Virus record (IMG/VR): IMGVR_UViG_2061766007_000924
Coordinates: 1 to 64,000 of that record
Length of the DNA: 64,000 bases
From: a virus
Lineage: Duplodnaviria; Caudoviricetes
Direction: 5' to 3' (one strand)
The position numbers and the translations under genes are program-made. The notes beneath the pieces were generated by a model. That model ran no database searches. It was not told where the DNA came from and saw only the letters and a list, made by a program, of their open reading frames with translations. Numbering within the stretch: position 1 is the first letter of the stretch; every line of letters begins with the position of its first letter. Positions 4,631 through 24,619 of this stretch are shown piece after piece.

Positions 4631-7600
4631 ATGGATGCTGCTATAAACGACTATAGAGCAAGAAGGGAGAAAAGACTTGCTGAAAGGGGTATCTATCCTG
4701 AGAAGATCAGCAAGATCATTGCATTTGCCCAAAGAAGAGCTGCAAGGCTGGATGCAAGAGGCTACAGGGCGGACGCAGAGGGAGACGATCAAGACAACAA
4801 TCAGAATGAGGGTGGCGGAGGTTCTTCTGATGGCGCTCATGGTAATACCAGACTGCCTTTTGGCCTTTGCATGAGGTTCGGCATAGACATAGACCCGTCA
4901 TGGGGGCCGAGAGAGGCTTGGGATGCTCTCGCTGGTAAGGGAATAACACCAGCAGGGGCTTATGAAAGGCTCAAGAAGGGCGAAGATCCGGGAACGCCAG
5001 ACACGCCGGAGCCCCCTAAAGAGCCCGTTAGAAAAATAGCCGATAAGGACTACGGCGGAGCAGAATATGGATCTCTCAGAGGAAGAAAAAGAGATTGGGG
5101 AAGAGGCTACGAGCCGTGGATGCTGTATGGTGATAAAATTGACGGAACCGGAGATGGGAGCTACGCGCCAAGTCGGATGTCTGAGTCGTTTTGGACGAAA
5201 ACAGACATGTTCAGGTATCTCAAAGAAAGGGGCGTAGAAGAGTTTGAAGATCCAGAAACGGGTGAGCTCATCAATCCGAAGGAGATGGAGCTGCCAAAAG
5301 CGGTGTTCAAAAGGGGAGTAACTGGGTATACGGCAGTAACAATAGGGCTTAGAGATGGAAGGTACACTGTTGTTGGCACCGACATGGACGGGAAGAAAAA
5401 GACGATAAAGGATTACGGCTCTTTGAAGGAAGCGAAAGAATATCTTGAGGCGTATGGGGTAAAGGAAGAGGACATAAAGCTGTCTCCAGCATTGAAAAAG
5501 AGAGAGAAAGAGCGCCTTGAGTGGCTGTCTTCTGACAAAAAGCTCTATTTCGAGGATGGCGGTGTTAAGTATGGCGATCCTAAGATAGAAAAAGACTGGA
5601 AAGGTTATTATTTGGAAGGTGAAGCTGAGGACGGCAGCAAATTCTCAAGAAAATTTATGTCCAAGGCAGAGCTTATTAAATACTTGAAGGATCAGGGCGT
5701 TGAAAGGGTAAAATTTGAGAAAGAGACCATCAATCCCAAAGAATACGAGATCCCGGATACGAAAGCCACAATAGGAGGAAGATCTTATCAGGATGTAGAA
5801 CTGAGAGTGAGCCCGTATGGTGAGGTGTCACTGATCGGTACGGACTTGGATGGCGAAAGCAGAGCTATTGCCATAAGAAGATATGGTGAGACGCTTGGTG
5901 CGTTCAAAGAGAGAATAAGTCAGGACTATGGGCTTGGCGAAGATAAGCTGACGATTACCGATGAGACAAAACAAAAAATGGCTGAGATAGAGAAGGAAGA
6001 GGAAGAGAAGGAGCGCAGAAGAAAAGAGTTCGAGTCAAAGGCCATAATGTGGCCCACAGGCAGGAAATATGCAGATATAGAGCTCATGAAGGACGGGGAC
6101 GGCGTTTACTCGTTCTATGGATATACGAAGGATGGAGACAAAAGGAGAATCGCTTACGGAGAAGATTTTTATGGCGCGGAGAAATATGCGGAGGAAGCAG
6201 GGCACGATATAAGCGAATTTATCAAGGATGATGATGTAAGAAAAGACTATGAACGCTACAAGGACTCGATGAAGGACTTTGAAGCGAAAGCGTCTGATTT
6301 TGCTGGAGATAAGTACGCTGATATACAGATCATTTATGAAGGTGGCATGTACAAAGTCAGGGGTATAAATCCGAGGGGCCGAATGAAGGAAATCGCCAGA
6401 GAGACAAGCTATGAGGGTCTTGAGAAAGTGCTGAATCAGTACGGCTATTCTCCGACACAGTTCCCGATGGACGATGAGGCCACAAAGCGTAAAGATAGGG
6501 CCATGAAAGCAAAGTATGCGCTTGCTACAGGTGGGTATTATTCGCTCGGCAAAAAGGACGAGGCGTTCAAGGATATCTGTGTTCAGCAAGATCCGTCCGG
6601 AGAATGGTACATTATAGGCACAGACGTTGACGGGAAAGAAAAGCAGGTCGAAATTGTTAGATCATGGGACGATGCTGTGACCAAGATGAGCAAATACGGA
6701 GTATCGGACTATAAGATGAAAGACAAGTCTGGAGCTGAGATGGGCAAGCCTACTTATGGCATGCACGGCGTAATGCTTATGAGAAAACCGGGCGGCGGAT
6801 TTGTTGTTTATGCAGACACAGACAGGTTCGGAGCGCATGAGATCATGTACGAGTCTCCGAAAGAAGAAGAAGCGAGAAAGTGGCTGAGAGACAACAATGT
6901 GCCTGAGAGTGGGATCAAGACAAAGGGCATGAATCCGAATGACGATGTTGTCAGAGTAGCGCATACAAAGACAATGAAAAACTTCGATACTCATAGAATG
7001 AAAGCCATTGAAGGAACATTTATTGAGGACATGTCAGAAGAGGACAAGAAGGATGCTGCTGACATGATGGCGGAACTGTTCAACCAAGGCGAGTACAGAG
7101 TAGCGAGAAGCACAGATTCGTTTGCTGGTATTTTGGAAAACGGGTATAAGAGTCAGATTGAAATGGGCAAGGGCGGATATGGAGCCTCAAAGGATAAAGA
7201 AGGAAGGAAAGATTGCAGCAATCAAATGTATGGGCACGGTGGGCTGGATAAAACAGAGTATGAGAAGATGGGTTATATTGCGCCTCCTGACATTGCAGAG
7301 GACTACGACACTGGGGATCATCCATTTTATGGCGGATATTCTTCGATGACATACACTCTGAAAAAAGATACACTAAAGGACAGAACAACGTATACATTCG
7401 GAGACTCGCTAAACACATATATGCATGGCAGAGGATCGTTGAAGTCTGCTGGATATGCTGGGGAAAACCCGACAATCGAGGGGCTTACAGGAATAGGCGG
7501 TAAGACATATATGGATAGAGCACTTAGGGCATACAGAGAGTACAAACGGGGAGACATTTCTTTCTCTGAAATGTTCAAAAGAGTCAGGAGCTTGGCTAAC

Positions 7601-7843
7601 AACAACTATATTGAGTTGCAATTTACAGGGCCGGTAACTGCGTCTGATATCAAGAAGGTGTCATTTGACAATGTTAAGCATATAAAAAGTGCGTTTTCAA
7701 ACATGACTCCAGAGAAGAGAAAGAAGACTATAAAGATATTAAAAGACAACGGTATTGAGGTCGAGTACAGGAAAGATAGATACAGTCCTTTTGTTGACGG
7801 ATGGGACTGGATTAAGAAAAATTATCCCGATGACGTTGCGTGA
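4631..7843 (+). CDS. Effector 1: basic leader + adaptor A + about 8 internal repeats + C-terminal DUF3626-like (ART-fold) domain
   Basis: RBS AAAGGAG before ATG 4631; YRARREKRL, RLDA/RADA, HGNTRLPFGLC...AWDALAGKG; C-terminus GYKSQIE...RTTYTFGDS...YIELQFTGPV. Confidence 0.7.
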   Translation: MDAAINDYRARREKRLAERGIYPEKISKIIAFAQRRAARLDARGYRADAEGDDQDNNQNEGGGGSSDGAHGNTRLPFGLCMRFGIDIDPSWGPREAWDALAGKGITPAGAYERLKKGEDPGTPDTPEPPKEPVRKIADKDYGGAEYGSLRGRKRDWGRGYEPWMLYGDKIDGTGDGSYAPSRMSESFWTKTDMFRYLKERGVEEFEDPETGELINPKEMELPKAVFKRGVTGYTAVTIGLRDGRYTVVGTDMDGKKKTIKDYGSLKEAKEYLEAYGVKEEDIKLSPALKKREKERLEWLSSDKKLYFEDGGVKYGDPKIEKDWKGYYLEGEAEDGSKFSRKFMSKAELIKYLKDQGVERVKFEKETINPKEYEIPDTKATIGGRSYQDVELRVSPYGEVSLIGTDLDGESRAIAIRRYGETLGAFKERISQDYGLGEDKLTITDETKQKMAEIEKEEEEKERRRKEFESKAIMWPTGRKYADIELMKDGDGVYSFYGYTKDGDKRRIAYGEDFYGAEKYAEEAGHDISEFIKDDDVRKDYERYKDSMKDFEAKASDFAGDKYADIQIIYEGGMYKVRGINPRGRMKEIARETSYEGLEKVLNQYGYSPTQFPMDDEATKRKDRAMKAKYALATGGYYSLGKKDEAFKDICVQQDPSGEWYIIGTDVDGKEKQVEIVRSWDDAVTKMSKYGVSDYKMKDKSGAEMGKPTYGMHGVMLMRKPGGGFVVYADTDRFGAHEIMYESPKEEEARKWLRDNNVPESGIKTKGMNPNDDVVRVAHTKTMKNFDTHRMKAIEGTFIEDMSEEDKKDAADMMAELFNQGEYRVARSTDSFAGILENGYKSQIEMGKGGYGASKDKEGRKDCSNQMYGHGGLDKTEYEKMGYIAPPDIAEDYDTGDHPFYGGYSSMTYTLKKDTLKDRTTYTFGDSLNTYMHGRGSLKSAGYAGENPTIEGLTGIGGKTYMDRALRAYREYKRGDISFSEMFKRVRSLANNNYIELQFTGPVTASDIKKVSFDNVKHIKSAFSNMTPEKRKKTIKILKDNGIEVEYRKDRYSPFVDGWDWIKKNYPDDVA

Positions 7844-7854
7844 TGTTGCATATA

Positions 7855-7884: not shown

Positions 7885-7901
7885 ATAGTGGGGGTGGAGA
7901 A

Positions 7902-8267: not shown

Positions 8268-8280
8268 AACAATGTGTTAA

Positions 8281-8333: not shown

Positions 8334-9128
8334 ATGACAGACGTTGAAAGATTCAGACTCCGCAGGAGCAGAAGGTTGGCAGCGCGGGAAAGGATGGATG
8401 ACGAGGAAGAGAACGCAAACAACGGGGGCAAAAAAGGCGGACACGGCAACACAAAGCTGCCATACGGGTTATGCCACAAGTATGGTATCGAGATACAAAA
8501 AGGCTGGCAACCACGGGATGCTTGGGACGCTCTTGCGGAAAAAGGTGTCACTCCGGGCGATGAGTTTGCAAAGAGAGGATCTAAGCAGACAACGATCGAG
8601 ACGAAGCTTGGGACATATAAGAATACACGAGTAGAGAAGTACGGAAATCGGTATTTGATCAAGGGGGATATGCAGCCAACAGGAAAAGAGGGCTACGGGA
8701 GCAAGGGCGTTGACAACGTGCAGATAGCAGCATACACAAACAAAAAAGAGATGTTCGCGAGGCTGAAAGAGCACGGCATAACAAGTGTGGTGGATCCAGA
8801 TACGGGTGAAAAGGTGAATCCGATGAAGATGGACTTGCCAAAGGTCGTTGCTCAGAAAGGCGACAGTAGATACACAGACTTGGTGCTTGGGATTCGGTCA
8901 AATAAGTATGGTGTACCTTTCGAGAGAAAAGGCTTCACACTCGTGGCAAAGGATTTCGATGGGAAAAAGGTGGCAATGGGCACGTTCGATAGTCCAAAGC
9001 AAGCGAGAGACTATGCTATGGAAAAGTTGAAGTGCAAGAAAGAGGATATTCGAGAAACAAGAGACTACAAGGAAAAGGTAAGGCCGAAGATTGCAGAGAG
9101 CAACAGCCTATACAGACATTGGGCATAG
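8334..9128 (+). CDS. Effector-family protein 2: leader + adaptor A + about 2 repeats homologous to effector 1, no recognisable toxin domain
   Basis: AGGAGG RBS; FRLRRSRRL..RMDD, HGNTKLPYGLC; MFARLKEHG..DPDTGEKVNP matches MFRYLKERG..DPETGELINP of effector 1. Confidence 0.7.
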   Translation: MTDVERFRLRRSRRLAARERMDDEEENANNGGKKGGHGNTKLPYGLCHKYGIEIQKGWQPRDAWDALAEKGVTPGDEFAKRGSKQTTIETKLGTYKNTRVEKYGNRYLIKGDMQPTGKEGYGSKGVDNVQIAAYTNKKEMFARLKEHGITSVVDPDTGEKVNPMKMDLPKVVAQKGDSRYTDLVLGIRSNKYGVPFERKGFTLVAKDFDGKKVAMGTFDSPKQARDYAMEKLKCKKEDIRETRDYKEKVRPKIAESNSLYRHWA

Positions 9129-9347
9129 CTTTTCTCAAAAGTTGCTAAAAAGCTCTGCGAATTGCTACTTGTTTACACTTTGTTCATGAAAATGTCCATC
9201 GTAAATGATAAAATGTGCACGATGGAAAGAGTATAAGAAGCGGAAGCGCCGGGCAACTGGCGCTTTTATTATAATTGGGGCTTGCGTTTGCGGATGCATG
9301 CTTGGGAGCGCTTGGAAACAGGCGCTCTTTCTTTTTACCAACAACGG

Positions 9348-11549
9348 ATGAAGGGGAGTGACAGCTTGTACAAGAAACAGAATATAGTGGACTTCTCAAA
9401 ATTCGTTGACGGAAACGCGAAGTTCATTGAAAAGACAACAGGCAAATCTGTCAGGCCGAGGAACAAGGCGTACAATCAGGATGGATTTGTAAATCTGCTT
9501 ACGAATTATGGCACAAGCCGTGACTCGTCAGAGCATTATTTCTTCGAGTCGGAAGATCCTATTATGGACGATGAGCTGGAGAGGTTCTATGAGGGGAACG
9601 GGCTGTTCTCCAGAATCATTGACTTGCCAGCAGAAGAGGCCATAAAGCACGGGTTTGAGATAAAGGATCTTGCGGACGGCGAGACGAAGGACTTCTTCGA
9701 TGACTCTATGGATGAGCTTGAGTGGGACGAGAAGTTCATGACTGCGCTCAAGTGGGCGAGGCTTTTTGGCGGTTCAATCGGCGTAATGCTGATAAATGAC
9801 GGAAGGGGTCTGGAAGATCCGCTTGACTGGGATCATATCAAGTCAATTGATGACATTCAGGTTTACGACAGGTCGCTTGTTGTGCCGAATTATGCGTCAA
9901 TGTACAAGTATGAGGGCGAAGATCCTTCGAGGTCGAGGGGAAGCAGACTTGGCGTTCCTGAGAATTTCATGGTAACAAGCAAGTACGGTACTTTCACTGT
10001 TCACGAAAGCAGGTGCTTGATTTTCCAGAACGGCGTTCTTCCTGAAAGATGCACCAACGAGATTTACCAGATGTGGGGCATTCCTGAGTATATCAGGATT
10101 CACAGGGCAATCAAAGACGTAGAGGTTGCTCACGGCATGGCTCCGAAGATGCTGGACAGGTCGGTACAGGCTATCTACAAGATGCAGAATTTGGCGCTTG
10201 AGATGTCAACGGATCAGGGCGAAGAGAACATCTTGAAGAGGTTGCAGCTGATTGACCTTGCGAGAGGGCTTATGAACAGCATTGTCCTTGACGCTGAGGG
10301 TGAAGACTATGATTTCAAGTCTTTCACATTCACGGGCGTTTCGGATGTTATCAACACAACATGCAATTATCTGTCTGCGATTACGAACATACCGCAGACA
10401 GTTCTTTTTGGTCGTGCTCCGGCTGGTATGAATGCCACTGGTGACGGCGACATGGAGAACTACTACAACTATGTAGAGAGAATCCAGAAGCGCATGGTTA
10501 AGAAGAATCTGCGCTATTTGCTTGAAATTCTTGCGAAAGCAGGAGTCAGGAACAAAGAGATCAAGGGACATCCGCCGATCAAGATAGAGTTTAGTTCTCT
10601 TTGGTCTATGACAGAGCAGGAGAAAGTTGCGCTGGATCTGCAAAAGGCGCAGGTTGCTCAGACAAATGCCAATACAGCGAATGTCTATGTCCAGATGCAA
10701 GCGCTTGACCCGCAGGAAGTCAGGGATCAGCTTGCAAAGGATGGAGACTTTGAGATTGACACAATGCTGGATGACTACACCGATGAGGAGCTTGAGGAAA
10801 ACAATCCTGCCAACAAGCAGCAGCAAGACCAGATGGCTGCGATGATGGGCATGATGGGTGGAGGCGCACCCGGAGGCGGAGCGCCAGAAGGTGGAGCACA
10901 GAGCGGAAATCCAATGATGCCTCCAGAGGCGCAAGAAGGGGCTCAGGAAGCGCCGAAGCCTCAGATGGGTAATTTGCCGTCTGATGGCGGAAAAGACGTT
11001 CCTGATGAAAATCCGAAAGCTACAAGTGCAGAAGAAAAGAAAACTGAGAAGACAGTCGAAGAAGACGCTGACGATGTGAAGCCTCACATGCTTGGCGGAG
11101 TTGGAGTCATTGTTGTAAAGGACGGAAAGATTCTGACTGCTACGAGGATTAAAGGCAAAGGCACCGGACTCATTGGTGGGCCGGGAGGCCACATTGAGGA
11201 AGGTGAGACTCCGAAAGAAGCTGCTGTAAGAGAGACTTTGGAAGAGTTCAAAATCATTCCGAAGGATCTTGTGAGAATCGGCAGCAAGCTTGAGACGGGC
11301 ACAGGAATCAAAGTCGGCGGCGATAATGCAGAGCACTTGAGAAGCACCGTGTTCCTTTGCACCGAGTTCGAGGGAGAGCCAGAGTGTGACAATTATGAAA
11401 TGGCTATTCCCGTTTGGAGAGACTTGGATGAGCTCAGGCTTATGGATGACAGAATGTTCAAACCTTTCAAAGATGGGTTGAAGATGCTGAAAAATAAGGT
11501 CGCCAGAGGAATCATGGAAAACAAAAACTCTTGGGATGGAAAGTCCTGA
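9348..11549 (+). CDS. Portal protein (DUF1073-type) fused to a C-terminal Nudix hydrolase (alternative start TTG 9366)
   Basis: DGFVN, WARLFGGS, VHESR, IPQTVLFGRAPAGMNATGDGDMENYY portal motifs; low-complexity linker; Nudix box GGHIEEGETPKEAAVRETLEE. Confidence 0.9.
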   Translation: MKGSDSLYKKQNIVDFSKFVDGNAKFIEKTTGKSVRPRNKAYNQDGFVNLLTNYGTSRDSSEHYFFESEDPIMDDELERFYEGNGLFSRIIDLPAEEAIKHGFEIKDLADGETKDFFDDSMDELEWDEKFMTALKWARLFGGSIGVMLINDGRGLEDPLDWDHIKSIDDIQVYDRSLVVPNYASMYKYEGEDPSRSRGSRLGVPENFMVTSKYGTFTVHESRCLIFQNGVLPERCTNEIYQMWGIPEYIRIHRAIKDVEVAHGMAPKMLDRSVQAIYKMQNLALEMSTDQGEENILKRLQLIDLARGLMNSIVLDAEGEDYDFKSFTFTGVSDVINTTCNYLSAITNIPQTVLFGRAPAGMNATGDGDMENYYNYVERIQKRMVKKNLRYLLEILAKAGVRNKEIKGHPPIKIEFSSLWSMTEQEKVALDLQKAQVAQTNANTANVYVQMQALDPQEVRDQLAKDGDFEIDTMLDDYTDEELEENNPANKQQQDQMAAMMGMMGGGAPGGGAPEGGAQSGNPMMPPEAQEGAQEAPKPQMGNLPSDGGKDVPDENPKATSAEEKKTEKTVEEDADDVKPHMLGGVGVIVVKDGKILTATRIKGKGTGLIGGPGGHIEEGETPKEAAVRETLEEFKIIPKDLVRIGSKLETGTGIKVGGDNAEHLRSTVFLCTEFEGEPECDNYEMAIPVWRDLDELRLMDDRMFKPFKDGLKMLKNKVARGIMENKNSWDGKS

Positions 11550-11566: not shown

Positions 11567-12805
11567 ATGGACAAAGCTGTTGAAAAATTCAGAAAGCGCA
11601 GACAGGAAAGACTTGATGCGAAAAACGGAGCTAAGGAAGTCGAGTACGATAGCGTGGCTGAGTTCAGAAAACGTAGAGAAGAACGTCTCAATTCCAGAAT
11701 GGATGCTGGAGTAGGCTGGGTTTTTGGCGTTCTGAAAGAAAACGGCGTTGACACTCAGGGTATGAGTGTAAAAGAGGCTTTTGAGGCGCTTGGCAAGATT
11801 AACGGTGGTGGGAAAAATGGAAAGAGTGAAGCTGCTGCCAAAGAAAAGAACAATTCGCCAAAGAATGAACCGACAAACAGCAAAAAGTCTTCAAGTGGCG
11901 GAGAGGTAAAAGGCAGTTCCTACACCAACCGATATAAGACAAGTGGTGGAGTCAGCTATCCGAAGCTCAAGAAGGGTGCTGTGTATGATGAAGATACGTT
12001 GAAGGAAGTCAATAGGCTTGCGGATAGCACAGAAAGCAACAGGCCACCTAAAACAAGAGCACAAGAAAAAGCCCTCAAGTCGATGACAAGCAAAGATATA
12101 ACGTATCAGAAAGATCCTGATGGGACTGTTGTGGGATCTATTCCCGGACTGTCCCAGATGTATGATACAAAAGTTAAAGGGAAAAGTCAGGCTGTTCAGG
12201 ATGCGTATGATAAGAGAATCGAGCAGGGCAGACAGATCACTAAGGACATGGTTAGCATTAGTGACAAGCTTGGCTCACGCATGATGGGGCTTGAAAACTG
12301 CTTCAAGGGCGGAGAGAGCACTTCAAGAAAGATAGATAAAGTAAAAGACAAGTGGAAGCAGAAGGGCGAGGATCTGACTGATGAGCAAGCGCTTGCCAGA
12401 ATGGACGATGTTGTCCGATTCTCATACAAATGTGACCACGGTAAAATGGTAGAACAGATCAAGGGACTTGAGTCAGAACTTGAGAAAAACGGATATGAGA
12501 TAACAGAGCGTGATAACAAGTTCCTGCCTAAAGAGGATGGAACGCCGAGAGATTATAAGGCCGTTCATTTGCAGGTCAAAGCTCCGAGCGGAGAACTGTT
12601 TGAGGTGCAGGTGCAGTCGGAAGAAACGATCAAGGTAAAGAACAAGAATCACTCACTCTATGAGAGGTCAAGGGTTCTGGATGATAAAGATCCGAAACAG
12701 GCCGCTGAGAAAACAAAACTGGTAAACGATATGGTAAATAACTGGTCTGGGATGGCAGAGCCTGACGGAATTTTAGATCTGCCAACATTCAAGAAAAAGA
12801 AGTAG
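11567..12805 (+). CDS. Effector 3: double leader + RelA/SpoT-type small alarmone synthetase (toxSAS/Apk2-like)
   Basis: FRKRRQERLDA and FRKRREERL..RMDA; synthetase motifs K..ES..RKI, DDVVRFS, DYKAVHLQ, FEVQVQS. Confidence 0.85.
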   Translation: MDKAVEKFRKRRQERLDAKNGAKEVEYDSVAEFRKRREERLNSRMDAGVGWVFGVLKENGVDTQGMSVKEAFEALGKINGGGKNGKSEAAAKEKNNSPKNEPTNSKKSSSGGEVKGSSYTNRYKTSGGVSYPKLKKGAVYDEDTLKEVNRLADSTESNRPPKTRAQEKALKSMTSKDITYQKDPDGTVVGSIPGLSQMYDTKVKGKSQAVQDAYDKRIEQGRQITKDMVSISDKLGSRMMGLENCFKGGESTSRKIDKVKDKWKQKGEDLTDEQALARMDDVVRFSYKCDHGKMVEQIKGLESELEKNGYEITERDNKFLPKEDGTPRDYKAVHLQVKAPSGELFEVQVQSEETIKVKNKNHSLYERSRVLDDKDPKQAAEKTKLVNDMVNNWSGMAEPDGILDLPTFKKKK

Positions 12806-13220: not shown

Positions 13221-13244
13221 AACTGCGGAAGGGAAGTGGTTAGC

Positions 13245-13667
13245 ATGAATGAGCTGCTGAAAAAGGCAGAGGAGTTTGCTGCTCTGATGCACAGCGGACA
13301 GGTTGATCGTGGAGGATCACCTTACATTGAACACCCTCGCGCTGTGGCTGCAAAGGTGGACGGAGAGACTGAGAAGATTGTAGCTTGGCTGCATGACACG
13401 GTTGAGGACACGGATGCGACTATAGAGCAGATCGAGGACATGTTCGGTGCTGAGGTTGCTGGAGCTGTAGCATTGCTCACGCATGACAAAAGTGAGCCGT
13501 ACATGGATTACGTCAGAAAACTAAAGGGCAATGAGATTGCTCGTAAGGTCAAGATGGCGGATCTGAGTCACAACATGGACGTTTCCAGACTGCCAATAAT
13601 CACGGATGCAGACTGGTGCAGAGTCAAGAAATACAAGAAAGCTTATGATCTTCTGAGTGAAGATTGA
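13245..13667 (+). CDS. HD-domain small alarmone hydrolase (Mesh1/Aph1-like)
   Basis: HSGQVDRGGSPYIEHP, WLHDTVEDT, KVKMADLSHN. Confidence 0.9.
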   Translation: MNELLKKAEEFAALMHSGQVDRGGSPYIEHPRAVAAKVDGETEKIVAWLHDTVEDTDATIEQIEDMFGAEVAGAVALLTHDKSEPYMDYVRKLKGNEIARKVKMADLSHNMDVSRLPIITDADWCRVKKYKKAYDLLSED

Positions 13668-16152: not shown

Positions 16153-16378
16153 GTTTTATAAGGAGAAATCAGGGGACAAAGTCTGGTGGTTAGATAACGA
16201 CAGCATAGGTGAGTTCGTTTTTAGCTTTGACAGGAAGAAGACATACAACTTGTTTCAGGACTATCCGCACAAACTGAGTGTGGAAGAGTGGAAGACATTC
16301 AACAGAGAGAATCCTTATTGGGAAAACTTTTTCAAGGACAGAAACGAAAAATACAAGAAAAAGCACGATATTGATTGA
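16142..16378 (+). CDS. Candidate immunity protein for effector 5
   Basis: 78 aa, overlaps the stop; FYK..DKVWW...FSFD.K..YNLF.DYP...ENPYW..FF.DR. Confidence 0.65.
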   Translation: MRSEFYKEKSGDKVWWLDNDSIGEFVFSFDRKKTYNLFQDYPHKLSVEEWKTFNRENPYWENFFKDRNEKYKKKHDID

Positions 16379-16384: not shown

Positions 16385-17677
16385 GTGATTCTGTTGGACG
16401 GTGCGAGAAGACAAAAGCGAATGGATGATAAGGCCGTTCAACTCTATAAAATGCGCAGGGATGAGCGACTTTTGCGCAGGTATGATGCAGAAGAGGAAGA
16501 GGGCAACAATGGAGGGGGGAACGGCGGAGGTCATGGAAACACAAAAATCCCGTTCGGATTATGCCAAAGAGAGGGCATAAAAGTAGACCCGAACTGGACA
16601 CCGAGGGACGCTTGGGATGCGTTGGCTGGTAAGGGCTACAGTGCAGGAGATGTCTACAAAGAGCTCAAAGAGACCGGAAAAGTTGGCAAGAAGAGCTCCA
16701 CCAAGACGAAGAAACCACCAACGAGAATAGAGGAAAGCCATTTTCAGCCGGAATTTACATCAAAGACATACAGAAAAAACACAATGGTTTTCGCTGACTA
16801 TATAAGCGACCATTGTGACGATGGAAACATAACCGAGTTTCTTGGCGCAGGTGCAGCTGGAGGGAAAAAGCCGTCAAAGTTCAAAGTCACGAGACTGTCA
16901 GGAGCAGACGGGGCTTGCGTAACTTATACACGGGATCTGGACGATATTGAGATTCGTATTCCGAATTTTGCTTCTATAAAAGACGAGAGGACAAGGGCTC
17001 AAGCAATAAGGACATTTGCTCATGAGTATACGCATTACCTTGACATGCTTGCCAGAGGTGAGCACGGGGATCATTTTACCGGGGCAAATTCAAAGATAGC
17101 TGATGAGCTGGAAAAGGCAAAAAGCAAGGGGATCGGAGAAGAAGTCTCAAATGTCTTCAAAGAGTACAATAAAGGCTACGAGAAGCTCAAGAATGACTAC
17201 GATGCCAAGGTAAAGACGTTCGACCGAGATTTTGCCAAGCAAAAGTTTGGTGACAATTTCCCGGAGTGGCTGAAAGAGGACGGAACGTGGAATTATTCCC
17301 TTGGGTGGAGAGCTTGGCAAGCGCATCAACCGGAAATGAAGAAATACAGCTCGGAGAGGAAAAAGGCGGCTAAAAAAATGGCTACTGATAGTTCTTTCGA
17401 GAGACGGGCGTATATGGACGGCGCAACAAGCTTGCAGGGGATATACGATTCGATTCATGGCGGAGAGCTGAGAGACCAAAAGGTTGTAAAGTACGGACAT
17501 TCACTTGGTTATTTCAAGAGAGACAAGGAAAACAGAGCGGTAGAGGTCATAGCTGACTATGTGGCTTTAAGGGCAACTAACTCAAAGTATGCAGATATGT
17601 TCGCGAAGGATCATCCGGGGCTTGCCGCTGCACTGGATGAGGCCATAGTAGAGATGACTAAGGTTTTGAGGGGGTAA
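16385..17677 (+). CDS. Effector 6: leader + adaptor A + HExxH zinc metallopeptidase domain
   Basis: YKMRRDERL..RYDA, HGNTKIPFGLC; FAHEYTHYLD; YGHSLGYF...EVIAD. Confidence 0.75.
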   Translation: MILLDGARRQKRMDDKAVQLYKMRRDERLLRRYDAEEEEGNNGGGNGGGHGNTKIPFGLCQREGIKVDPNWTPRDAWDALAGKGYSAGDVYKELKETGKVGKKSSTKTKKPPTRIEESHFQPEFTSKTYRKNTMVFADYISDHCDDGNITEFLGAGAAGGKKPSKFKVTRLSGADGACVTYTRDLDDIEIRIPNFASIKDERTRAQAIRTFAHEYTHYLDMLARGEHGDHFTGANSKIADELEKAKSKGIGEEVSNVFKEYNKGYEKLKNDYDAKVKTFDRDFAKQKFGDNFPEWLKEDGTWNYSLGWRAWQAHQPEMKKYSSERKKAAKKMATDSSFERRAYMDGATSLQGIYDSIHGGELRDQKVVKYGHSLGYFKRDKENRAVEVIADYVALRATNSKYADMFAKDHPGLAAALDEAIVEMTKVLRG

Positions 17678-17989: not shown

Positions 17990-18940
17990 ATGGCTACAAT
18001 CGCTACAGTGAAAGATCCGCCTATCAGGACGCTGATGGCGGTTAGTAGCTCAAGGGGCAATTCAAGCACAGAGAAGATACCGAGAAGAAAGCCAGTTTAT
18101 CCGATTTCTGCGGAGAGAGAGCTTGCAAGGGTGTTTCTTCCTGTAGCTGTCATGATAAGAAAGAAGTCGAAGCCGTACATTGACAGGCTGATGGCTGTAT
18201 ACGATGTCTGGTCACAAGAGAATGTGAGAACGGACGCGAGAATCAGCATGCAGGATGCAGCCGGGATGATTCTGGATGAGTACGGCGCAGACATACAGGG
18301 TGACTTAGACATCGAGCAAATAACAAAAGGCGTTCAGAGGACTGCAAAATATGCCAGAGGCATTTCAATCAGAGACTGGAAAAGTCTTGTGGATGATGCC
18401 TTGGGCTTTGATATAGACGAGCCTTTCTACGTGGAGCAGACGGAAGATTTGCTTAACAAGTGGGTGTATGAGAGCGTTCAACATATCACGAGTTATCCAC
18501 AGGAGTATTTAGGGAAGGTTCAGGAGGCTATCATTTGGGGGTACACAACGCACCAACCGATGGTCAACGTGTATCGAAGAATTGAGAAGCTGACAGGCGA
18601 CACAAGAGCTCACGCAAGGATGATTGCACGGGATCAGATGGGGACGCTCAATTGCAGAATGACACGATATGAGCATGAAAGCATGGGCGTTTCAAAGTAT
18701 AAGTGGGTTACAAAACACGATTTCCGAGTGAGAGAATGTCACAGGGAATTGGATGGGCATATATTTGACTGGAACAATCCTCCTGCTCAATGGTACATGA
18801 CTAAGAGTAGGGGGATTGTTTATACAGGGGAGTACGCACATCCCGGTGAAAGTTATTGTTGTCGGTGCCGTGCAGCTCCTGTGTTTGATGAAAAAATCGT
18901 AGAGGCGGCAAAGGCCAACAGAAAGTTTTATGCTGTATAG
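17990..18940 (+). CDS. Minor head protein MuF (SPP1 gp7 family), short form with no toxin extension
   Basis: RARMIARDQ-like (HARMIARDQ), YKWVT..DFRVRECH..LDG..F.W, HPGESYCCRC. Confidence 0.9.
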   Translation: MATIATVKDPPIRTLMAVSSSRGNSSTEKIPRRKPVYPISAERELARVFLPVAVMIRKKSKPYIDRLMAVYDVWSQENVRTDARISMQDAAGMILDEYGADIQGDLDIEQITKGVQRTAKYARGISIRDWKSLVDDALGFDIDEPFYVEQTEDLLNKWVYESVQHITSYPQEYLGKVQEAIIWGYTTHQPMVNVYRRIEKLTGDTRAHARMIARDQMGTLNCRMTRYEHESMGVSKYKWVTKHDFRVRECHRELDGHIFDWNNPPAQWYMTKSRGIVYTGEYAHPGESYCCRCRAAPVFDEKIVEAAKANRKFYAV

Positions 18941-18945: not shown

Positions 18946-21900
18946 GTGATTGCCATTAAGGACTACAAAGCCATATACGAATACAGAGAAAGACGGCAAT
19001 ATAGGATTGATGGCAAGCGTCTTGATGATGAGTGGAAGACGATCAAAGGCACTCATGTCATGATAGATGATGAAGGATCTATCACAAAAGGGCCTGAGAA
19101 GCTGAGGAATCTGTCAAGTAAAAAGCCAAAAAACTTGACAGTCGGCAAAGAGATGTCTCCAATCAATTCGGACTATGTCTATGATGATGGAGACACCGAG
19201 GACGATTTCACTCATAAGAATCTCAAAAAGCTCAAGAAAATCTATGATGAGCAGGGCATGGATGCTGTTCATGATGAATGGTACAAGTTCAGAATGGCAG
19301 ACAGCACCAAGGATATACACCAGATAAGCAAAGACGAGGCGGACGAGATCATGTATGATAACGTCCGTCAAAGCATTTATGATGGCTGGTTTCGAGCAGC
19401 AGACAGTTCTTACAAGCCGCAGTTGACGGATGCAATTGTAAAGAATCCAGAGATGCGGAACGCAGCTCTGAATTTGGCTTATGAGAACTACAGGAACAAC
19501 ACTGAAAATCCGTTGCCTTTTGAAGAGTTTCTGGTAACACCTATTAAGATGTACAGAGGCGAAAAGGGTCAAAAGCATGTCGAAGATGACATTTTCGATG
19601 CCTACACCTTTGATCCTAAGATGGCAAGGCATTTTGCAGGTGACAATGGCACTGTAACTGAGACTGAGGTAAGGCCGATTGACACTTACGGAAGCATGAG
19701 GGCGGTTGGCGAGGCTGAGATATGGGTGCCGAGACAGCTTTCTCCTGTTGGCTACAAGGGCGACTCCAGAGAGGACGGTATCACTTGGGAGAGGTTCGAT
19801 CCTCAGAAGTGGGCTCTTGAAGACTACAAGGAAGAGGATGACGGCTGCGAGGATCTGCTTGAATCTATCATTCAGGAAGCTGAGATGGTCAAGCTGTTTG
19901 ACGGCAGCAGCAAGGAATCTGACAGACTGACGATGCAGAGATGCATTGAGAGCATTCAGATCATGGCCTTGCAGCTGACAGCGAAGCTTAGGCCAAAGCA
20001 TGAAGACAGCGCTTTCTTCGCTGGAGAGTTGAACAGCAATCTTGGTGAGAGAAACATTCTTTATCCAGAAGTACAGGCATTCAGAGAGCGCAGACAAAAG
20101 AGACTGGATGCAAAGAGTGACGAAGATGAAGGGCGCTGGGTAACGACAGAGGAAAAGCATAAAGTTCATATCAACGAAGAGGGAGTACCGGACAAGGGAA
20201 ATCCTCATGTAATAGCAGCAATGAAGGGTGAGGGCAAGAATCCAAAAACAAGAGCCGAGGTTATAACCGCAAGAGTTAAGAAAAAGTCGGCGGCTATAAA
20301 GGAACTTGTCAAGAGAGTCAACGAGAAAAATGAAGCTCATGAAAAAGCAATAGACGAAAAAAGCGAAGCAGACAAGGAACTGAGAAATGCCAAAAGAGGG
20401 CTCAGACGAGTTAAATCCAAAAAAGACTTTATCAAAGGGCTTGGATATAAAGAGGGCGATAAGAATAAAATGCTTAGAGATTCCGATGATTTGCAAATTC
20501 AGATGGACAAGCTAAGAGACAGTCGGCCCGTTTATAGACTTAGCGATGAAGAAAAGGCCAAATACACAGAGCTTGAGAGCAGAAAGAATCAAGTAGATTA
20601 TGCGGCAGGTGTATATGATGATTGCTTTGGGCCAGACGCTTTTACAAGAGAAAAGGTGGCGCAAGCACGGGAACGGTCAGCGGCTGCTGACAAAAAGATG
20701 AGGCAAGCTGAGAAGGAGTATCGTCAGGCGAGAAAAGAGCTCAAGCAAAAGGCGAAGAACGGAGATATAAACAAAGCGCGATTGTACACAGATGAAGAGA
20801 GAGCGTCTGAGATCAAAAAAGTTGTTGAATCGCCACAATGGGGAGACTTAAGCCAAGAGCAGAGAGACAAAGCTATGGCGGCTATCAACGGAGCGTCTGA
20901 TGCAGAAATACAGCTGTTAAGCAGGACGTTTGATAAAGTAAGATTCAACGACAGCTACGGAGCAACGACAATAGGCGGCTCAACGGCTTGGTACACTCCA
21001 AGAACAGGGGCAATCACGTTGTCACAAGAGGACATGGGAAAGCCAAAAACAGTGTGGCACGAATTTGGGCATTTCTTGGACGATGCAGAGGTTAGTGGCT
21101 GTGACGCTGGAGAAACGAGGCTGATGGGGTCAACATACAAAGACACCTTGTCACATCGAGTCTCAAGTGATAAAATATTGCACAGTGAAAAAGCGGCTGC
21201 GGATATGCAAAAGCTGTTGGATGAAGAAGCTCCCGGAAAGTATCGAATTGAGTCTTCCAACGGCAACATGCTTCGCGTCTTCGATGTTGAAAAGGGTGAA
21301 TATGTGGATGCTTCGGAAGATATGTCATATGACTATTATCTATCTGAGGTAACATGCAGACATTTTCATGAATTCACCTTTAGGGACAAGGAATATGATG
21401 ATTATTTAAGGTCTATTGGTTATCCTTTGGATAGTGAAATGCCGAAATACAGTGATTTCATGGAGACATATACGACTCCAAAGCGCAAATTGGAAAGAGA
21501 AAGAGAAAAGTATCCGGGTGCGAAAAAAGAGTACATGAACAAAATGAGCAAATTCCATTTGCAAAGGAATCAAGCGATAGACAAGAATTTGGAAGAGTAC
21601 AGAAGACAGACTAAAGCATATGACGATAGGTGCACAGAGAGGGGAAATCAAGTTGGAGCAATATCGGACATTATGTGCGGTATGATGCGAGGAAAAGGGG
21701 CATGGATATACGGATGCCACAAGGAAGATTATTATAGCATTATGGATGCACCTGCTAAAGAAGCTGTCGCACATTATCATCAAATGAGAGTCATGGGAAG
21801 CAAGTATGGGATGGAGCTTCTGAATAGTTTGCTGCCGAGCGTGGCGCATGGGCTGGAAGAGGCTTACAATGAATGGCTGTGGAGGAATGTAGATGTATAA
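18946..21900 (+). CDS. Effector 7: tandem [leader + adaptor B + ART-like domain]-[leader + adaptor B + coiled coil + HExxH metallopeptidase]
   Basis: YRERRQYRIDG/RLDD, WKTIKGTHVMIDDEG; MYRG..AYT..A..F..GEAEIWV; internal FRERRQKRLDA + GRWVTTEEKHKVHINEEG..GNP; VWHEFGHFLD. Confidence 0.7.
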   Translation: MIAIKDYKAIYEYRERRQYRIDGKRLDDEWKTIKGTHVMIDDEGSITKGPEKLRNLSSKKPKNLTVGKEMSPINSDYVYDDGDTEDDFTHKNLKKLKKIYDEQGMDAVHDEWYKFRMADSTKDIHQISKDEADEIMYDNVRQSIYDGWFRAADSSYKPQLTDAIVKNPEMRNAALNLAYENYRNNTENPLPFEEFLVTPIKMYRGEKGQKHVEDDIFDAYTFDPKMARHFAGDNGTVTETEVRPIDTYGSMRAVGEAEIWVPRQLSPVGYKGDSREDGITWERFDPQKWALEDYKEEDDGCEDLLESIIQEAEMVKLFDGSSKESDRLTMQRCIESIQIMALQLTAKLRPKHEDSAFFAGELNSNLGERNILYPEVQAFRERRQKRLDAKSDEDEGRWVTTEEKHKVHINEEGVPDKGNPHVIAAMKGEGKNPKTRAEVITARVKKKSAAIKELVKRVNEKNEAHEKAIDEKSEADKELRNAKRGLRRVKSKKDFIKGLGYKEGDKNKMLRDSDDLQIQMDKLRDSRPVYRLSDEEKAKYTELESRKNQVDYAAGVYDDCFGPDAFTREKVAQARERSAAADKKMRQAEKEYRQARKELKQKAKNGDINKARLYTDEERASEIKKVVESPQWGDLSQEQRDKAMAAINGASDAEIQLLSRTFDKVRFNDSYGATTIGGSTAWYTPRTGAITLSQEDMGKPKTVWHEFGHFLDDAEVSGCDAGETRLMGSTYKDTLSHRVSSDKILHSEKAAADMQKLLDEEAPGKYRIESSNGNMLRVFDVEKGEYVDASEDMSYDYYLSEVTCRHFHEFTFRDKEYDDYLRSIGYPLDSEMPKYSDFMETYTTPKRKLEREREKYPGAKKEYMNKMSKFHLQRNQAIDKNLEEYRRQTKAYDDRCTERGNQVGAISDIMCGMMRGKGAWIYGCHKEDYYSIMDAPAKEAVAHYHQMRVMGSKYGMELLNSLLPSVAHGLEEAYNEWLWRNVDV

Positions 21901-22207
21901 GGATACGTTCAAGCTCAATCAAGAGCTTGTTGAGCTCTTGAATGATGGGTTTTTTGATGATATAGAGTTCAAAATGTGCGTAGGCAAAGACGGAAAGCTC
22001 GATTTTGATGGATTGCTGAGTTTCTGGATTGGCTTGGGCGGAAGAAAGTATACAATGAAGTATCTTTTGAAGTATGGCGGGTTGGGGTCGCCTTGGGTTC
22101 AATATGATAACAGAGACGAGGATGAAAAAAAGTACAAGAAACTGATTGAGGAAAACAAGACTTGGGAAGAGGCGTATGGAAAGCCGCCCAAGGATGTGCT
22201 TTTGTAG
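21893..22207 (+). CDS. Candidate immunity protein for effector 7
   Basis: 104 aa, overlaps the effector stop, followed by a terminator. Confidence 0.55.
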   Translation: MYKDTFKLNQELVELLNDGFFDDIEFKMCVGKDGKLDFDGLLSFWIGLGGRKYTMKYLLKYGGLGSPWVQYDNRDEDEKKYKKLIEENKTWEEAYGKPPKDVLL

Positions 22208-22225
22208 AAGCCAATATTGTAAAGC

Positions 22226-22258
22226 AGCATCGTGCAGATAATAGCACGGTGCTTTTTT
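22226..22258 (+). terminator. Intrinsic terminator
   Basis: AGCATCGTGC-loop-GCACGGTGCT followed by TTTTT. Confidence 0.7.
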
Positions 22259-22358
22259 AATAGATTGATGTTGCTAAATAGCGAAAATATTGCGCTATAC
22301 AGGAAAATAATCGTTGTATTACCCATGTCACAGCGTTAAAATTAGCCGAGGTGATTAT

Positions 22359-23012: not shown

Positions 23013-23034
23013 GGGCACGAAAGTGCCCTTTTTT
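23011..23034 (+). terminator. Intrinsic terminator
   Basis: AAGGGCAC-GAAA-GTGCCCTT-TTTT. Confidence 0.8.
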
Positions 23035-23059
23035 CTATGCCAAAAAGAGGGGATGAAAA

Positions 23060-24619
23060 ATGGAGATTAGAGATGCGCCTAAACTCGTGAAAGTAACGAG
23101 GCTTGATAGTATGCCGATGCCAAGGGCATATTTCACACCGGAAGGATATCTGAAAGATAAGCCCGTGCTCACGTCTACGGGAATATTCGAGTATGCAAAT
23201 CCTGATGGAAGTATAAGGCGCGAACTAAGGCTTCCCGAGGATGTTTTCGATCCTAAAAGTCTCAAGAGCTATCTGGGGAAACCAATAGTGGTGACTCATG
23301 ATGCCGGGCTGATTGACAAAGACAACGTGGCAGAGAATCAGATTGGCACTATCTTGAGCGAAGGGGAAAGAAAAGGAAATGATGTTGTCGCTTCTATAAT
23401 CATTCACGACACTGAAGCTATGAAGGATGCAGGGTACAAAGAATTAAGCCTTGGATACAACTTGGATCTGGACGAGACTCCGGGCGAATGGCAGGGGCAA
23501 CATTATGATGCGCGGCAGCGTAACATAGTTATCAACCATTTGGCTCTTGTGCGTGAGGCAAGGGCTGGAGAACAGGCACGGCTGAATATGGACGGTCGTG
23601 ACAAAAACACACTTATAGGGGGTAAAAAAATGAGCAAGAAACTCACCAAGACTCGTCATGGTGACTCTGTTCTTTCTCAGGAAGAGTTTGAGAAAGCCAT
23701 TGACGAGTACAAGATGCGTAAGGCCCAGCGTGAGAAGACTGACGCTGATGATGTTGTTGAGGAAGAGGCCGTTGAGGAAGTCAAGGATCGCAACCCCAAG
23801 GACATTGAGGCGCAGCTTGCCGAAGTCAAGGCCAGACGTGACCGCCGTGACGAGGCTGGAGATCCTGAGGACATGGAAGACGCAATGAGCGTCATTGCCC
23901 ATCAGGACGAGGACATCGACATTCTGTATGACATCATTGACACACTGCTTGCAAAGCAGGATTTCGATGCGGCTGACGAGGAAGAGGAAGTCACTGCCGA
24001 GGAGGAAGTCATTGATGACGAGGACGAGAACCTTGATGAAATTGATGATCTGAACAAGCTCAAGGACAACAAGGCCAAGGCTGACGCTGACGATGATGAA
24101 GCGTTTGTTGAGGAAGAGGAAGTCAAGGAAGATGCCGATGACATCGAGGATGTCGAGGACGAAGAGATGGTAGATGAGGAAGAGGAAGTCAAGGAAGACG
24201 CTGACGATACCGAGGAAGAGGTTGTCGAGGATAAGGAAGAGTGGGAAGAGGACGGAGATGACTGCGGCACCAAGAAGGAGCGCATGGACTCCGCTATCAG
24301 CCGTTCTGTTCGCAATCACCTGATCATGGGCAACATCGGTCGGCAGGTCGGTCTGAACAATCTTGAGATGAAGGATATTCGCGATGCGAAGATTGCCATT
24401 ATCAAGAAGGTTCGTCCCGACATGCGTCTGGATGGCAAGTCCAATGCGTACATCAACGGCGCTTTTGAGAGTGCCCGTAAGGCTATCAAGGCGAAGAAGG
24501 TCAAGGACACTTCCTACCAGAAGCGTCAGATGTTCAACAAGGATTCTCGCGATGTAGTAGAAAAAAACACTGCTGAGAGTGCTCGTGACCGCATGATCAA
24601 GAGACTCTACAAGAAGTAA
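23060..24619 (+). CDS. Prohead protease/scaffold (DUF2213-type) with a long acidic scaffold region
   Basis: TPEGYL, RRELRLPEDVF, KELSLGY, NHLALVREARAG; located before the decoration and capsid genes. Confidence 0.85.
   Translation: MEIRDAPKLVKVTRLDSMPMPRAYFTPEGYLKDKPVLTSTGIFEYANPDGSIRRELRLPEDVFDPKSLKSYLGKPIVVTHDAGLIDKDNVAENQIGTILSEGERKGNDVVASIIIHDTEAMKDAGYKELSLGYNLDLDETPGEWQGQHYDARQRNIVINHLALVREARAGEQARLNMDGRDKNTLIGGKKMSKKLTKTRHGDSVLSQEEFEKAIDEYKMRKAQREKTDADDVVEEEAVEEVKDRNPKDIEAQLAEVKARRDRRDEAGDPEDMEDAMSVIAHQDEDIDILYDIIDTLLAKQDFDAADEEEEVTAEEEVIDDEDENLDEIDDLNKLKDNKAKADADDDEAFVEEEEVKEDADDIEDVEDEEMVDEEEEVKEDADDTEEEVVEDKEEWEEDGDDCGTKKERMDSAISRSVRNHLIMGNIGRQVGLNNLEMKDIRDAKIAIIKKVRPDMRLDGKSNAYINGAFESARKAIKAKKVKDTSYQKRQMFNKDSRDVVEKNTAESARDRMIKRLYKK

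Follow-up and report, generated by a model that had tools for sequence, protein, structure and literature searches.

In an uncultured 101-kb Clostridia phage, six proteins of the head gene block that are otherwise unrelated share an arginine-rich N-terminal helix. We are inclined, if only slightly, to read this helix as a propeptide for prohead targeting, copied from the protease-scaffold protein of the same phage, that would load cargo for injection. The window analyzed here comprises the first 64,000 nucleotides of the phage record IMGVR_UViG_2061766007_000924. The element is a helix of approximately 16 residues, present in one or two copies at the start of six modular proteins, hereafter cargo A to F, and we infer from sequence the packaging and cleavage of these proteins as well as the binding partner of their leader.

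The leader helix and the cargo gene block

The core motif of the leader, [YF][RK]xR[RK]xxR[LIM], occurs nine times in the six reading frames of the whole 101,395-bp genome, versus a mean of 0.048 and a maximum of 1 in residue shuffles of the + strand open reading frames. An earlier note on this DNA had raised the frequency of the motif outside the head genes as a concern; all nine copies proved to be confined to six genes of the head module, each on the + strand and between the terminase gene and the protease-scaffold gene. The peptides that it had listed under 4631, 8334, 11567, 14692, 16385, and 18946, which are the start coordinates of cargo genes A-F, are all present on the + strand at or a few codons from these positions, and the tandem arrangement it described is borne out by cargo C and D. 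Eight copies are N-terminal or nearly so, and the ninth is an internal copy in F. Shine-Dalgarno-like sequences precede the starts of A-D, a weak site of this kind precedes the GTG of F at 18946, and TTG 16394 is the better-placed start of E. Six different codons are used at the invariant arginine positions and the mean nucleotide identity between copies is 53%, indicating that the leader is conserved as protein and that its copies are not DNA repeats. The nine conserved positions (A, V/I, Y/F, R/K, R, R, R, L, and R/K) form a single stripe on one face of the helix (conservation moment 0.32, permutation p = 0.0002), a pattern that holds across at least 100 clusters at 50% identity and is as would be expected of a docking surface.

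The proteins sharing this tag (nine copies in six proteins) diverge after approximately residue 130. Cargo A (1070 aa; 4631-7843, +) carries a 13-residue leader at 4640-4678 and a weak second copy at about 4715-4762, followed by a Y-R-A-D-A site, an acidic/Gly linker, and adaptor A (about 4838-4975). Cargo B (264 aa; 8334-9128, +) contains a leader at 8340-8378, an R-M-D-D site, and adaptor A (about 8442-8580). The leaders are in tandem in cargo C (412 aa; 11567-12805, +), at 11576-11614 and 11651-11689 with an R-M-D-A site and a diverged adaptor A, and in cargo D (486 aa; 14692-16152, +), at 14701-14739 and 14749-14787 with R-L-D-A between the copies, R-M-D-A at their end, and adaptor A at 14845-14982. 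The AF2 model of D places helices at residues 2-15 and 18-40 and disorder at 40-52, followed by three short helices. Cargo E (16385-17677, +; approximately 430 aa, with its likely start at the TTG) has a truncated first copy and a full leader (16433-16471), then R-Y-D-A and adaptor A (about 16532-16670). Cargo F (984 aa; 18946-21900, +) comprises two cassettes in one open reading frame, the first with leader 18970-19008, R-I-D-G / R-L-D-D, and adaptor B at 19033-19077, and the second with the internal leader 20068-20106, R-L-D-A, and adaptor B at 20134-20184. Adaptor B recurs at about 13882-13944 in a leaderless 266-aa protein (13687-14487, +), whose N-terminal helical domain elsewhere precedes leaders or adaptor A (P0010, P0099, P0131, and P0142).

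Most cargo domains of the window have no assigned family in Pfam searches, and sequence searches of the PDB with A and F found nothing. The C-terminal part of A weakly matches DUF3626, an identity that we rejected as the match reached only E 0.12; Ish1 matches lie elsewhere in A, fall below threshold, and lend no support to an identity for adaptor A. The C-terminal domain of C is common to the C-terminus of the XopAD effector family (NCBIfam NF041399, 1.1e-18, partial match), and C matches the 'head morphogenesis' family phrog_7625 in its C-terminal part only; a RelA/SpoT domain considered for C was not confirmed by Pfam. Weak SprT/WLM metallopeptidase hints were found at the C-terminus of E, and a relative of F in locus L002 contains an ADP-ribosyltransferase domain. 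Small open reading frames lie downstream of A, C, D, E, and F, one of them DUF7675. When the model of D residues 1-116 was compared with the PDB using Foldseek, nothing was returned below E 5, leaving the candidate assignments of adaptor A as a helix-extended-helix or SAP-like domain unsupported.

At least 522 protein clusters are defined by the N-terminal module. No Pfam, PHROG, or NCBIfam model covers its leader or adaptor, and a tblastn search of 50,697 deposited phage genomes gave no match. In relatives, the same module carries ADP-ribosyltransferase, Zeta-toxin, NUDIX, and ADP-ribosyl cyclase domains, cargo genes form arrays of 6-10 per phage, and portal-NUDIX-ART fusions of 1270-1620 aa occur. 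Cargo contexts that reach the head genes all have the same head gene set, with DUF2213 in every locus extending that far.

Among the cargo genes of the window lie a portal protein fused to a NUDIX hydrolase (9282-11549, +; PF06381 2.1e-72, PF00293 1.2e-15) and a stand-alone MuF / SPP1 gp7-like minor head protein of 316 aa (17990-18940, +; PF04233 6.6e-15, phrog_324). The latter has no fused effector and is directly upstream of F, which begins 6 bp later; Pfam found PF04233 in none of the six cargo proteins and only in this separate gene. This interleaving, the unfused state of MuF, and the matches of the C-terminal domains of C and D to C-terminal parts of PHROG head morphogenesis families would suit an alternative in which the leader addresses cargo not to the scaffold/capsid lattice but to the portal vertex, via the portal or MuF/gp7-like protein, as an in trans substitute for a covalent MuF fusion. 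We consider portal targeting quite unlikely, as the leader HMMs described below match only scaffold helices and no portal or MuF protein of any locus. Moreover, portal-bound gp7-like proteins are usually present in few copies, as for SPP1 gp7, a number that 6-10 cargo genes per phage would exceed.

The putative cleavage site

Every leader ends in [R/N/K/H]-hydrophobic-D-[S/A/G], and the same motif lies between tandem leaders. It is also fixed where the capsid propeptide ends and at no fewer than three domain borders of the scaffold. In the major capsid protein (gene 25163-26194), the putative propeptide end is H-F-D-S at residues 30-33 (25250-25261, +), positions that across 22 distinct homologues are occupied by R (15) or H (7), F (21), D (22), and S (15). 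Of 139 family members, 121 have this cleavage-like motif in the 45 residues before adaptor A, leaderless internal junctions included. The occurrence of one motif at leader ends, the capsid propeptide end, and scaffold borders suggests that it is probably a prohead-protease site. Genome-wide, the cleavage-like motif is present 37 times versus 18, an approximately 2-fold excess that is driven by the proteins that defined this short motif. There is precedent for prohead proteases that cut after an acidic residue when a small one follows, as at E120/S121 in P1 (PMC9024508).

The Asp-containing site after every leader also fits a reading in which the helix serves the prohead protease as a docking or recognition element that ensures efficient processing, with packaging via adaptor A or B or another feature. 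Consistent with this, the scaffold helix directly follows the protease domain and has an Asp-containing site on either side, and internal polyprotein junctions retain both site and acidic linker whether or not a leader is present. In addition, approximately 10 of the 139 family members have adaptor A and no leader, such that the adaptor could be the true packaging element. However, the best-conserved putative site, that of the capsid protein, has no adjacent basic helix, and tandem copies together with the three mimic flavours described below suit an assembly lattice better than one enzyme. We therefore regard protease docking as an unlikely role for the helix.

Scaffold and capsid segments resembling the leader

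The protease-scaffold gene (23060-24619, +) encodes a 519-aa DUF2213 protein (Pfam PF09979, 116.1 bits versus a cut-off of 22, 2.1e-33) with its protease domain at about residues 23-175, and precedes the cement gene (PF22758, 24634-25134) and the major capsid gene, whose product is homologous to solved phage capsid proteins. From its PHROG annotation as a 'head maturation protease' (phrog_530, 3.9e-72) and the motif described above, we infer a proteolytic role. The protein is a distant homologue of the Pa193 gp24 scaffolding protein (PDB 9b40), and its AF2 model contains helices at residues 207-313 and 408-518 past the protease domain. A leader-like helix at residues 213-231 (23696-23752, +) lies inside AF2 helix 207-230, flanked by H-G-D-S upstream (23657-23668) and K-T-D-A downstream. 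This copy keeps seven of the nine conserved stripe positions, fails the strict motif, and is undetected by the window-only and family leader HMMs. A relaxed stripe pattern selected after the fact, [ASV][VI]..[YF][RK].[RK][RK]..[RK], gave eight matches in six frames of the genome versus 0.03 expected; seven are leaders, and the window's scaffold helix is the only non-cargo site.

Judged by alignment and HMM scores, the resemblance of the leader to the scaffold is stronger in relatives than in this phage. An alignment of 40 DUF2213 proteins revealed that the helix at this position is a canonical leader in approximately ten lineages. The sole matches with E<0.01 to an HMM built from the window's nine cargo leaders, searched against 1.7 million residues of other loci, were scaffold helices (iE 0.002 in L004/L005 and 0.0055 in L008). 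A family-wide cargo HMM scored scaffold helices at 1e-6, 4.7e-6, and 0.066, and every non-cargo match below iE 1 was a scaffold helix. Leaders and both scaffold elements are predicted by AF2 as isolated helices between disordered linkers. Taken together, these comparisons support the view that the leader and the post-protease scaffold helix of DUF2213 proteins are the same element. The resemblance claimed by the earlier note is thus carried by HMM and alignment in relatives, whereas the window's own copy is degenerate and not significant alone. We searched for, and did not find, a simple co-variation of leader flavour with scaffold helix. The scaffold helix is non-basic in phages whose leaders are of type 2, and leader-bearing cargo is absent from the 10 kb examined in several phages where that helix is canonical.

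The same searches bear on whether the shared N-terminus is a trace of gene duplication in one family, with the scaffold resemblance arising by compositional chance. Cargo A, B, D, and E do share approximately 100-130 N-terminal residues and could be paralogues. However, the leader also occurs internally and without adaptor A (in F and in gene 15006 of L085), the scaffold matches are the only significant non-cargo ones among the 1.7 million residues, and conservation over the 100 or more clusters is confined to one helix face. This explanation is already disfavoured, and we find it hardly credible.

The scaffold resemblance first proposed stands for the post-protease helix, and the picture is wider, with two more flavours. 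A conserved C-terminal tail helix of the scaffold protein (residues 505-519; 24572-24616, +; core A-R-x-R-M-I-x-R-L), preceded by K-D-S at residues 494-496, is on HMM evidence the model for a second leader flavour in relatives. The only non-scaffold match to a scaffold-tail HMM is a leader in L001 (iE 9e-4); on 101,654 cargo residues its top 17 matches are all N-terminal leaders, and one phage has eight leaders whose motif is almost identical to that of its scaffold tail. As type-1 leaders are not scored by the tail HMM, the two flavours are linked only by position and a shared register and not by significant similarity. A third cargo class in relatives, as judged by a capsid N-arm HMM that matches six cargo proteins at residues 43-76, copies the N-arm of the capsid protein.

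With four to five invariant Arg/Lys in the helix, and a small three-helix domain next to it that could bind DNA, the leader might instead bind nucleic acid, either as a tether to the packaged genome for co-ejection or, after injection, by binding RNA inside the host. In known phages the scaffold protein leaves or is degraded before DNA enters. The homologous helix belongs to that scaffold protein, and the helix face that bears the arginines also bears invariant hydrophobic residues. Arginine richness of this kind is not a feature of the type-2 and capsid-arm flavours, and no fold match to a DNA-binding domain was obtained. Nucleic acid binding is, in our assessment, very unlikely to account for the leader.

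Proposed head loading and comparison with known systems

In the targeting propeptide reading that we favour, the leader would take the site normally used by the scaffold helix during prohead assembly, on the inner face or N-arm of the capsid protein or within the scaffold core, and cargo would therefore be enclosed together with the scaffold. The DUF2213 protease would then cut at the putative site, taking the capsid propeptide off, fragmenting the scaffold, detaching the cargo leaders, and splitting polyprotein F. Mature cargo, comprising the acidic linker, small adaptor domain, and variable effector, would stay in the head and enter the host with the DNA. Counting against this proposal are the degenerate scaffold helix of the window, the failure of leader and scaffold helix to co-vary, the leaderless adaptor A members, the weak genome-wide excess of the cleavage motif, and Pa193 gp24, the sole homologue with structural data, which is without the basic helix.

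The earlier note had drawn an analogy with the capsid targeting sequence (CTS) of T4, a short N-terminal tag on the diverse injected head-internal proteins IPI-III and Alt that sends them to the scaffold core and is cut off by the prohead protease (PMC3012670, PMC9026906). The likeness is one of proposed function only, a short N-terminal tag being common to several unrelated head-block proteins of one phage, and does not extend to homology with T4 internal proteins: no Pfam or PHROG match to them was found, and the protease is DUF2213 and not gp21-like. The leader also differs in being a longer helix with a strict consensus, often in tandem and homologous to a scaffold segment, and in its putative cut after Asp, where T4 cuts after Glu. 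[quoted passage not shown] Here, one consensus is present in 6-10 proteins per phage and in hundreds of clusters.

The nested protease/scaffold genes C/Nu3 of lambda and I/Z of Mu provide a short terminal segment that is shared with or binds the scaffold. The HK97 protease reaches the prohead interior via a C-terminal targeting tail (Duda et al. 2013, as cited in PMC12749128). It is plausible by analogy that the conserved DUF2213 C-tail is the counterpart of these protease targeting segments, with the difference that its motif is here re-used at the N-terminus of unrelated cargo proteins. Encapsulin cargo-loading peptides are likewise short conserved peptides on diverse cargo that bind the interior of an HK97-fold shell, although they are usually C-terminal, extended rather than helical, and stay on the cargo, in systems that have neither scaffold nor protease.

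MuF polymorphic toxins and polyvalent proteins are variable effectors (ADP-ribosyltransferase, NUDIX, alarmone-related, and others) whose genes sit next to that of the portal, often followed by small genes, and they have been proposed to be packaged and injected (PMC5576092, PMC5512222). The cargo genes resemble them in their position beside the portal, and the toxin domains of relatives and the small open reading frames after A, C, D, E, and F may correspond to the variable C-terminal toxin and its downstream immunity gene. They differ in that MuF is a separate gene and that cargo uses a helix-site-linker-adaptor module. F, with its two leader-adaptor cassettes in one polypeptide, may be comparable to the polyvalent proteins, which combine several effector domains in one chain encoded among virion genes (Iyer et al. 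2017). Pa193 gp24, the DUF2213 homologue, forms a helix-turn-helix under pentons, with unassigned density of approximately 16 residues under hexons (PMC11456595). The P22 scaffolding helix-turn-helix on the coat N-arm and Pa193 gp24 offer a likeness in short basic scaffold helices that make electrostatic contact with the inner capsid; the differences are that only scaffold-coat contacts, and not cargo mimicry, have been described there, and that gp24 has no basic post-protease helix.

We raise as a possible, though doubtful, generalization that protein packaging in this lineage of gut Clostridia phages follows a modular code readable from sequence. Cargo would carry, as its address, a copy of one or the other side of the contact between scaffold and capsid (post-protease helix, C-tail, or capsid N-arm), and an Asp-specific DUF2213 protease would release it at a site common to all cargo. 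Were this true, adding the leader, site, and linker to any protein would bring about its loading into the head and its injection, and the capsid interior would be where whole polyproteins are cut into units. How a phage chooses the proteins that it encloses and injects is understood in very few model phages, where the signals have no recognisable consensus; the signal here has a strict consensus, an origin traceable to the phage's own scaffold, and a likely release site. The leader system offers a direct test of which scaffold elements touch the capsid in this head type. Its natural cargo variants in uncultured gut Clostridia phages number in the hundreds, and many of these variants are NAD-directed enzymes or toxin-like domains. 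Its confirmation would define the specificity of the widespread DUF2213 protease, provide a compact tag for loading proteins into the capsids of phages that infect gut anaerobes, and make injected effectors predictable from metagenome sequence.

Head gene block and cargo leaders

The viral record, 101,395 bp long and 92% complete by estimate, is represented in the window by its first 64 kb, and nearly all of its genes lie on the + strand. Over most of positions 1-64000 the coding strand shows strongly positive GC skew (0.2-0.3) and AT skew, and both collapse at 24-26 kb and at 36-46 kb. Judged on the scaffold protein, the closest cultured relative is Faecalibacterium phage FP_Brigit (50% identity). 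The head block (3.2-26.2 kb) opens with the large terminase gene (3250-4581), which is followed by the genes for cargo proteins A (4631-7843) and B (8334-9128), a portal-NUDIX fusion (9282-11549, +), cargo C (11567-12805), an HD_4 hydrolase (13236-13667) preceded by a 95-aa ORF, a 266-aa protein, cargo D (14692-16152) and E (16385-17677), a MuF protein that stands alone (17990-18940, +) and cargo F (18946-21900). The gene for the DUF2213 protease-scaffold protein (23060-24619, +) comes next, and those for a cement protein and for the major capsid protein close the block.

The earlier note had proposed that the cargo proteins share a basic leader helix that resembles a scaffold helix and targets them to the capsid, and the leader peptides it listed are all present in the sequence. 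The core motif, [YF][RK]xR[RK]xxR[LIM], occurs nine times in the six frames of the whole genome versus 0.048 expected, and these copies are confined to the six cargo genes; non-head proteins thus do not carry the motif equally often. Shine-Dalgarno-like sites upstream of the starts of A-D place their leaders at residues 2-5, while TTG at 16394 is the likelier start of E and the Shine-Dalgarno-like site before F is weak. Proteins A, B, D and E have approximately 100-130 residues in common and diverge completely beyond them. Mere paralogy could account for such a shared N-terminus, yet this explanation is disfavoured. Six different codons encode the invariant arginines and DNA identity among the leader copies is 53%, which indicates selection at the peptide level.

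The shared module starts with a single or double leader helix, continues with a short [R/K]-hydrophobic-D-[A/D/G] element and a linker that is acidic and rich in glycine, and leads into adaptor A, a small conserved domain beginning H-G-N-T-x-L-P-F-G-L that has diverged in cargo C. In an AF2 model of residues 1-116 of D, confident helices at 2-15 and 18-40 precede a disordered linker, beyond which lie three short helices; a fold search with this model gave no match. In F the small element is instead adaptor B (W-x-T-x-x-G-x-H-V), which is present twice, each copy behind a leader, so that F comprises two cassettes in one ORF. Adaptor B sites (W-x-T-x-x-G-x-H-V-x-I) lie at 19033-19077 and 20134-20184 in F and at 13882-13944 in the leaderless 266-aa protein; no family model matches this domain, which also comes after type-2 and type-1 leaders in gene 15006 of the related locus L085 and in L100. 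At its N-terminus the 266-aa protein has a helical domain (C-A-D-K-I-I-x-I-C ..., 13687-13880) that recurs ahead of leaders or adaptor A in P0010, P0099, P0131, P0142 and gene 2956 of L090, and that may be another assembly-related module.

Resemblance of the leader to a scaffold helix

In an alignment of 40 DUF2213 proteins drawn from 79 related viral loci, the scaffold segment directly after the protease domain opens with an [ST]-P-E-E helix cap and, in approximately ten lineages, goes on to give the sequence of a canonical leader, A-I-x-x-Y-K-x-R-R-x-x-R-[LIM] with an acidic stretch behind it. The scaffold of FP_Brigit likewise carries a leader-like helix together with the conserved C-tail, whereas no cargo with a leader was found in the region of this phage that was analysed. 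The corresponding segment of the window scaffold (residues 213-231) is degenerate and keeps seven of the nine stripe positions, the conserved leader positions on one helix face. The resemblance was confirmed by two independent HMM tests. A model of the nine window leaders alone was run on the fetched loci translated in six frames (1.7 M residues), leaving the window and L002 aside; below E 0.01 it matched nothing but the scaffold helices in L004/L005 and in L008. A model of 125 distinct cargo leaders recovered these helices at 1e-6 and 4.7e-6 and that of L072 at 0.066, with no other non-cargo match below E 1.

In the 125 leaders the conserved residues line a single face of the helix, 3-4 positions apart, through five turns (moment 0.32, p 0.0002), a sequence pattern that points to a protein-docking stripe and not to general basic character. 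One rival reading of the leader is that it binds nucleic acid, a second that it is a protease-docking element, and a third that it targets cargo to portal or MuF. Leader flavour shows no simple co-variation with the phage's own scaffold helix, which is degenerate in the window, non-basic in phages with the second leader flavour (type 2), and canonical in several cargo-free phages.

A putative release site and other copied elements

An Asp-containing element follows every leader and is also found between tandem leaders and at the F junction. Among 22 distinct capsid proteins, [RH]-F-D-[SGD]-x-E-D is nearly invariant approximately 8 residues before the conserved N-arm. In the scaffold, related Asp motifs are fixed where the protease domain ends and just before the leader-like helix, with others before and within the C-terminal domain and approximately 10-20 residues before the tail motif; AF2 places the scaffold sites in disordered linkers flanking isolated helices 207-230 and 505-518. 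Prohead proteases are known to cut after an acidic residue with a small one next to it, such as P1 E120/S121 (PMC9024508). The Asp-containing element is a probable processing site, and we infer cleavage at the Asp or beside it. Across the whole genome the motif is in only two-fold excess.

Portal N-termini have x-x-D-G right before a conserved [YF]-V-N-x-L-N-K-x-G-T (window 9282-9530; L001 7084-, L082 10713-, L085 3761-), and may be processed by the same protease. In FP_Brigit an Arg-rich helix precedes the conserved portal segment, and the Pa193 portal lacks its first 93 residues in the virion.

Two further head-protein elements recur in cargo. The extreme C-terminus of DUF2213 proteins, A-R-x-[RK]-M-I-x-[RK], is conserved across the family, and cargo leaders of three related loci (L001, L083 and L085) bear this motif in place of type 1; in L083, eight cargo leaders almost match the scaffold tail in motif. 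An HMM of the scaffold tail had an L001 leader as its sole non-scaffold match (iE 9e-4), and on the cargo set its best 17 matches were all N-terminal leaders. In a third class (P0109, P0116, P0118, P0119, P0122 and P0141; for example, P0116 at L090:8072-11656), the capsid propeptide end and N-arm are copied at residues 43-76 as S-V-F-F-A-G-E-L ... Y-E-T-x-Y-P, followed by the Asp site and adaptor A. Cargo of this lineage thus borrows short pieces of head-assembly proteins.

Approximately 100 residues of the window scaffold (309-408; window 24300-24260 region) are almost pure Asp/Glu and predicted to be disordered, and in L083 this run is extended to approximately 180 residues plus a Pro/Lys/Gln-rich repeat. 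Basic leaders could associate electrostatically with this acidic core.

Spread of the module and a proposed route into the head

A module profile search identified 522 clusters at 50% identity, 308 of them below 1e-10, with lengths of 92-1886 aa, and genomic copies are found in MAGs of Clostridia and Christensenellaceae. The module had no match among 50,697 deposited phage genomes and no model in Pfam, PHROG or NCBIfam. Analysis of the 139 top proteins placed the start of adaptor A within 110 residues of the N-terminus in 131. The type-1 leader is strict in 76 of the 139 and relaxed in 16 (tandem in 27 of those 92), 11 have the second flavour, and approximately ten are leaderless, beginning directly at the acidic linker. 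Including internal leaderless junctions, the Asp-containing element lies at most 45 residues upstream of adaptor A in 121 of the 139.

Eight of the nine leader- or mimic-bearing contexts fetched belong to the same head type and are placed among its terminase, portal (PF06381) and MuF genes; the ninth (L098) is an uninformative 3.8-kb contig. DUF2213 is present in every context extending far enough downstream, and a PF09950 capsid gene is also found in L001, L002 and L090. One leaderless member belongs to another type of phage, which has a Terminase_3 gene, and one whose N-terminus fits neither flavour is outside any head module.

Cargo arrays reach 7-10 genes per phage. Among the few C-terminal domains that can be recognised are ADP-ribosyltransferase, ADP-ribosyl cyclase, DUF3626, HEPN and type I specificity domains, to which genes nearby in relatives add Zeta toxin and NUDIX. 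Residues 205-406 of cargo C (12179-12784) partially match the XopAD/skwp type III effector family of NCBIfam (1.1e-18, covering its last ~190 residues), and Pfam did not call RelA/SpoT in this domain. A 95-aa DUF7675 protein (6.2e-28; 16091-16378), a candidate cognate immunity or partner protein, overlaps the end of cargo D; in L100 (11710-11997) a member of this family comes after a related cargo gene. The portal itself carries effector domains, being fused to a NUDIX hydrolase in the window (9282-11549) and to NUDIX plus ADP-ribosyltransferase in relatives (1270-1620 aa).

The best reading is that the leader is a removable address tag derived from the scaffold. During prohead assembly the leader would take the site normally used by the scaffold helix, the protease would next cut it off, and the mature effector would remain in the head awaiting injection. 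Both scaffold elements and the capsid N-arm have copies in cargo. On the analogy of P22 (cited in PMC11456595), this suggests that scaffold helices touch the capsid N-arm and that either side of this contact may be open to mimicry. In function the leader system resembles the CTS of T4 and the DarB signal of P1 but has no T4 homology and is a member of neither; similarly, the cargo module resembles MuF toxins and polyvalent proteins in gene content, yet lacks a MuF domain and belongs to neither group. The new element is a consensus tag that is both strict and widespread and whose origin in the scaffold protein is demonstrable, together with alternative leader flavours and a common candidate release site.
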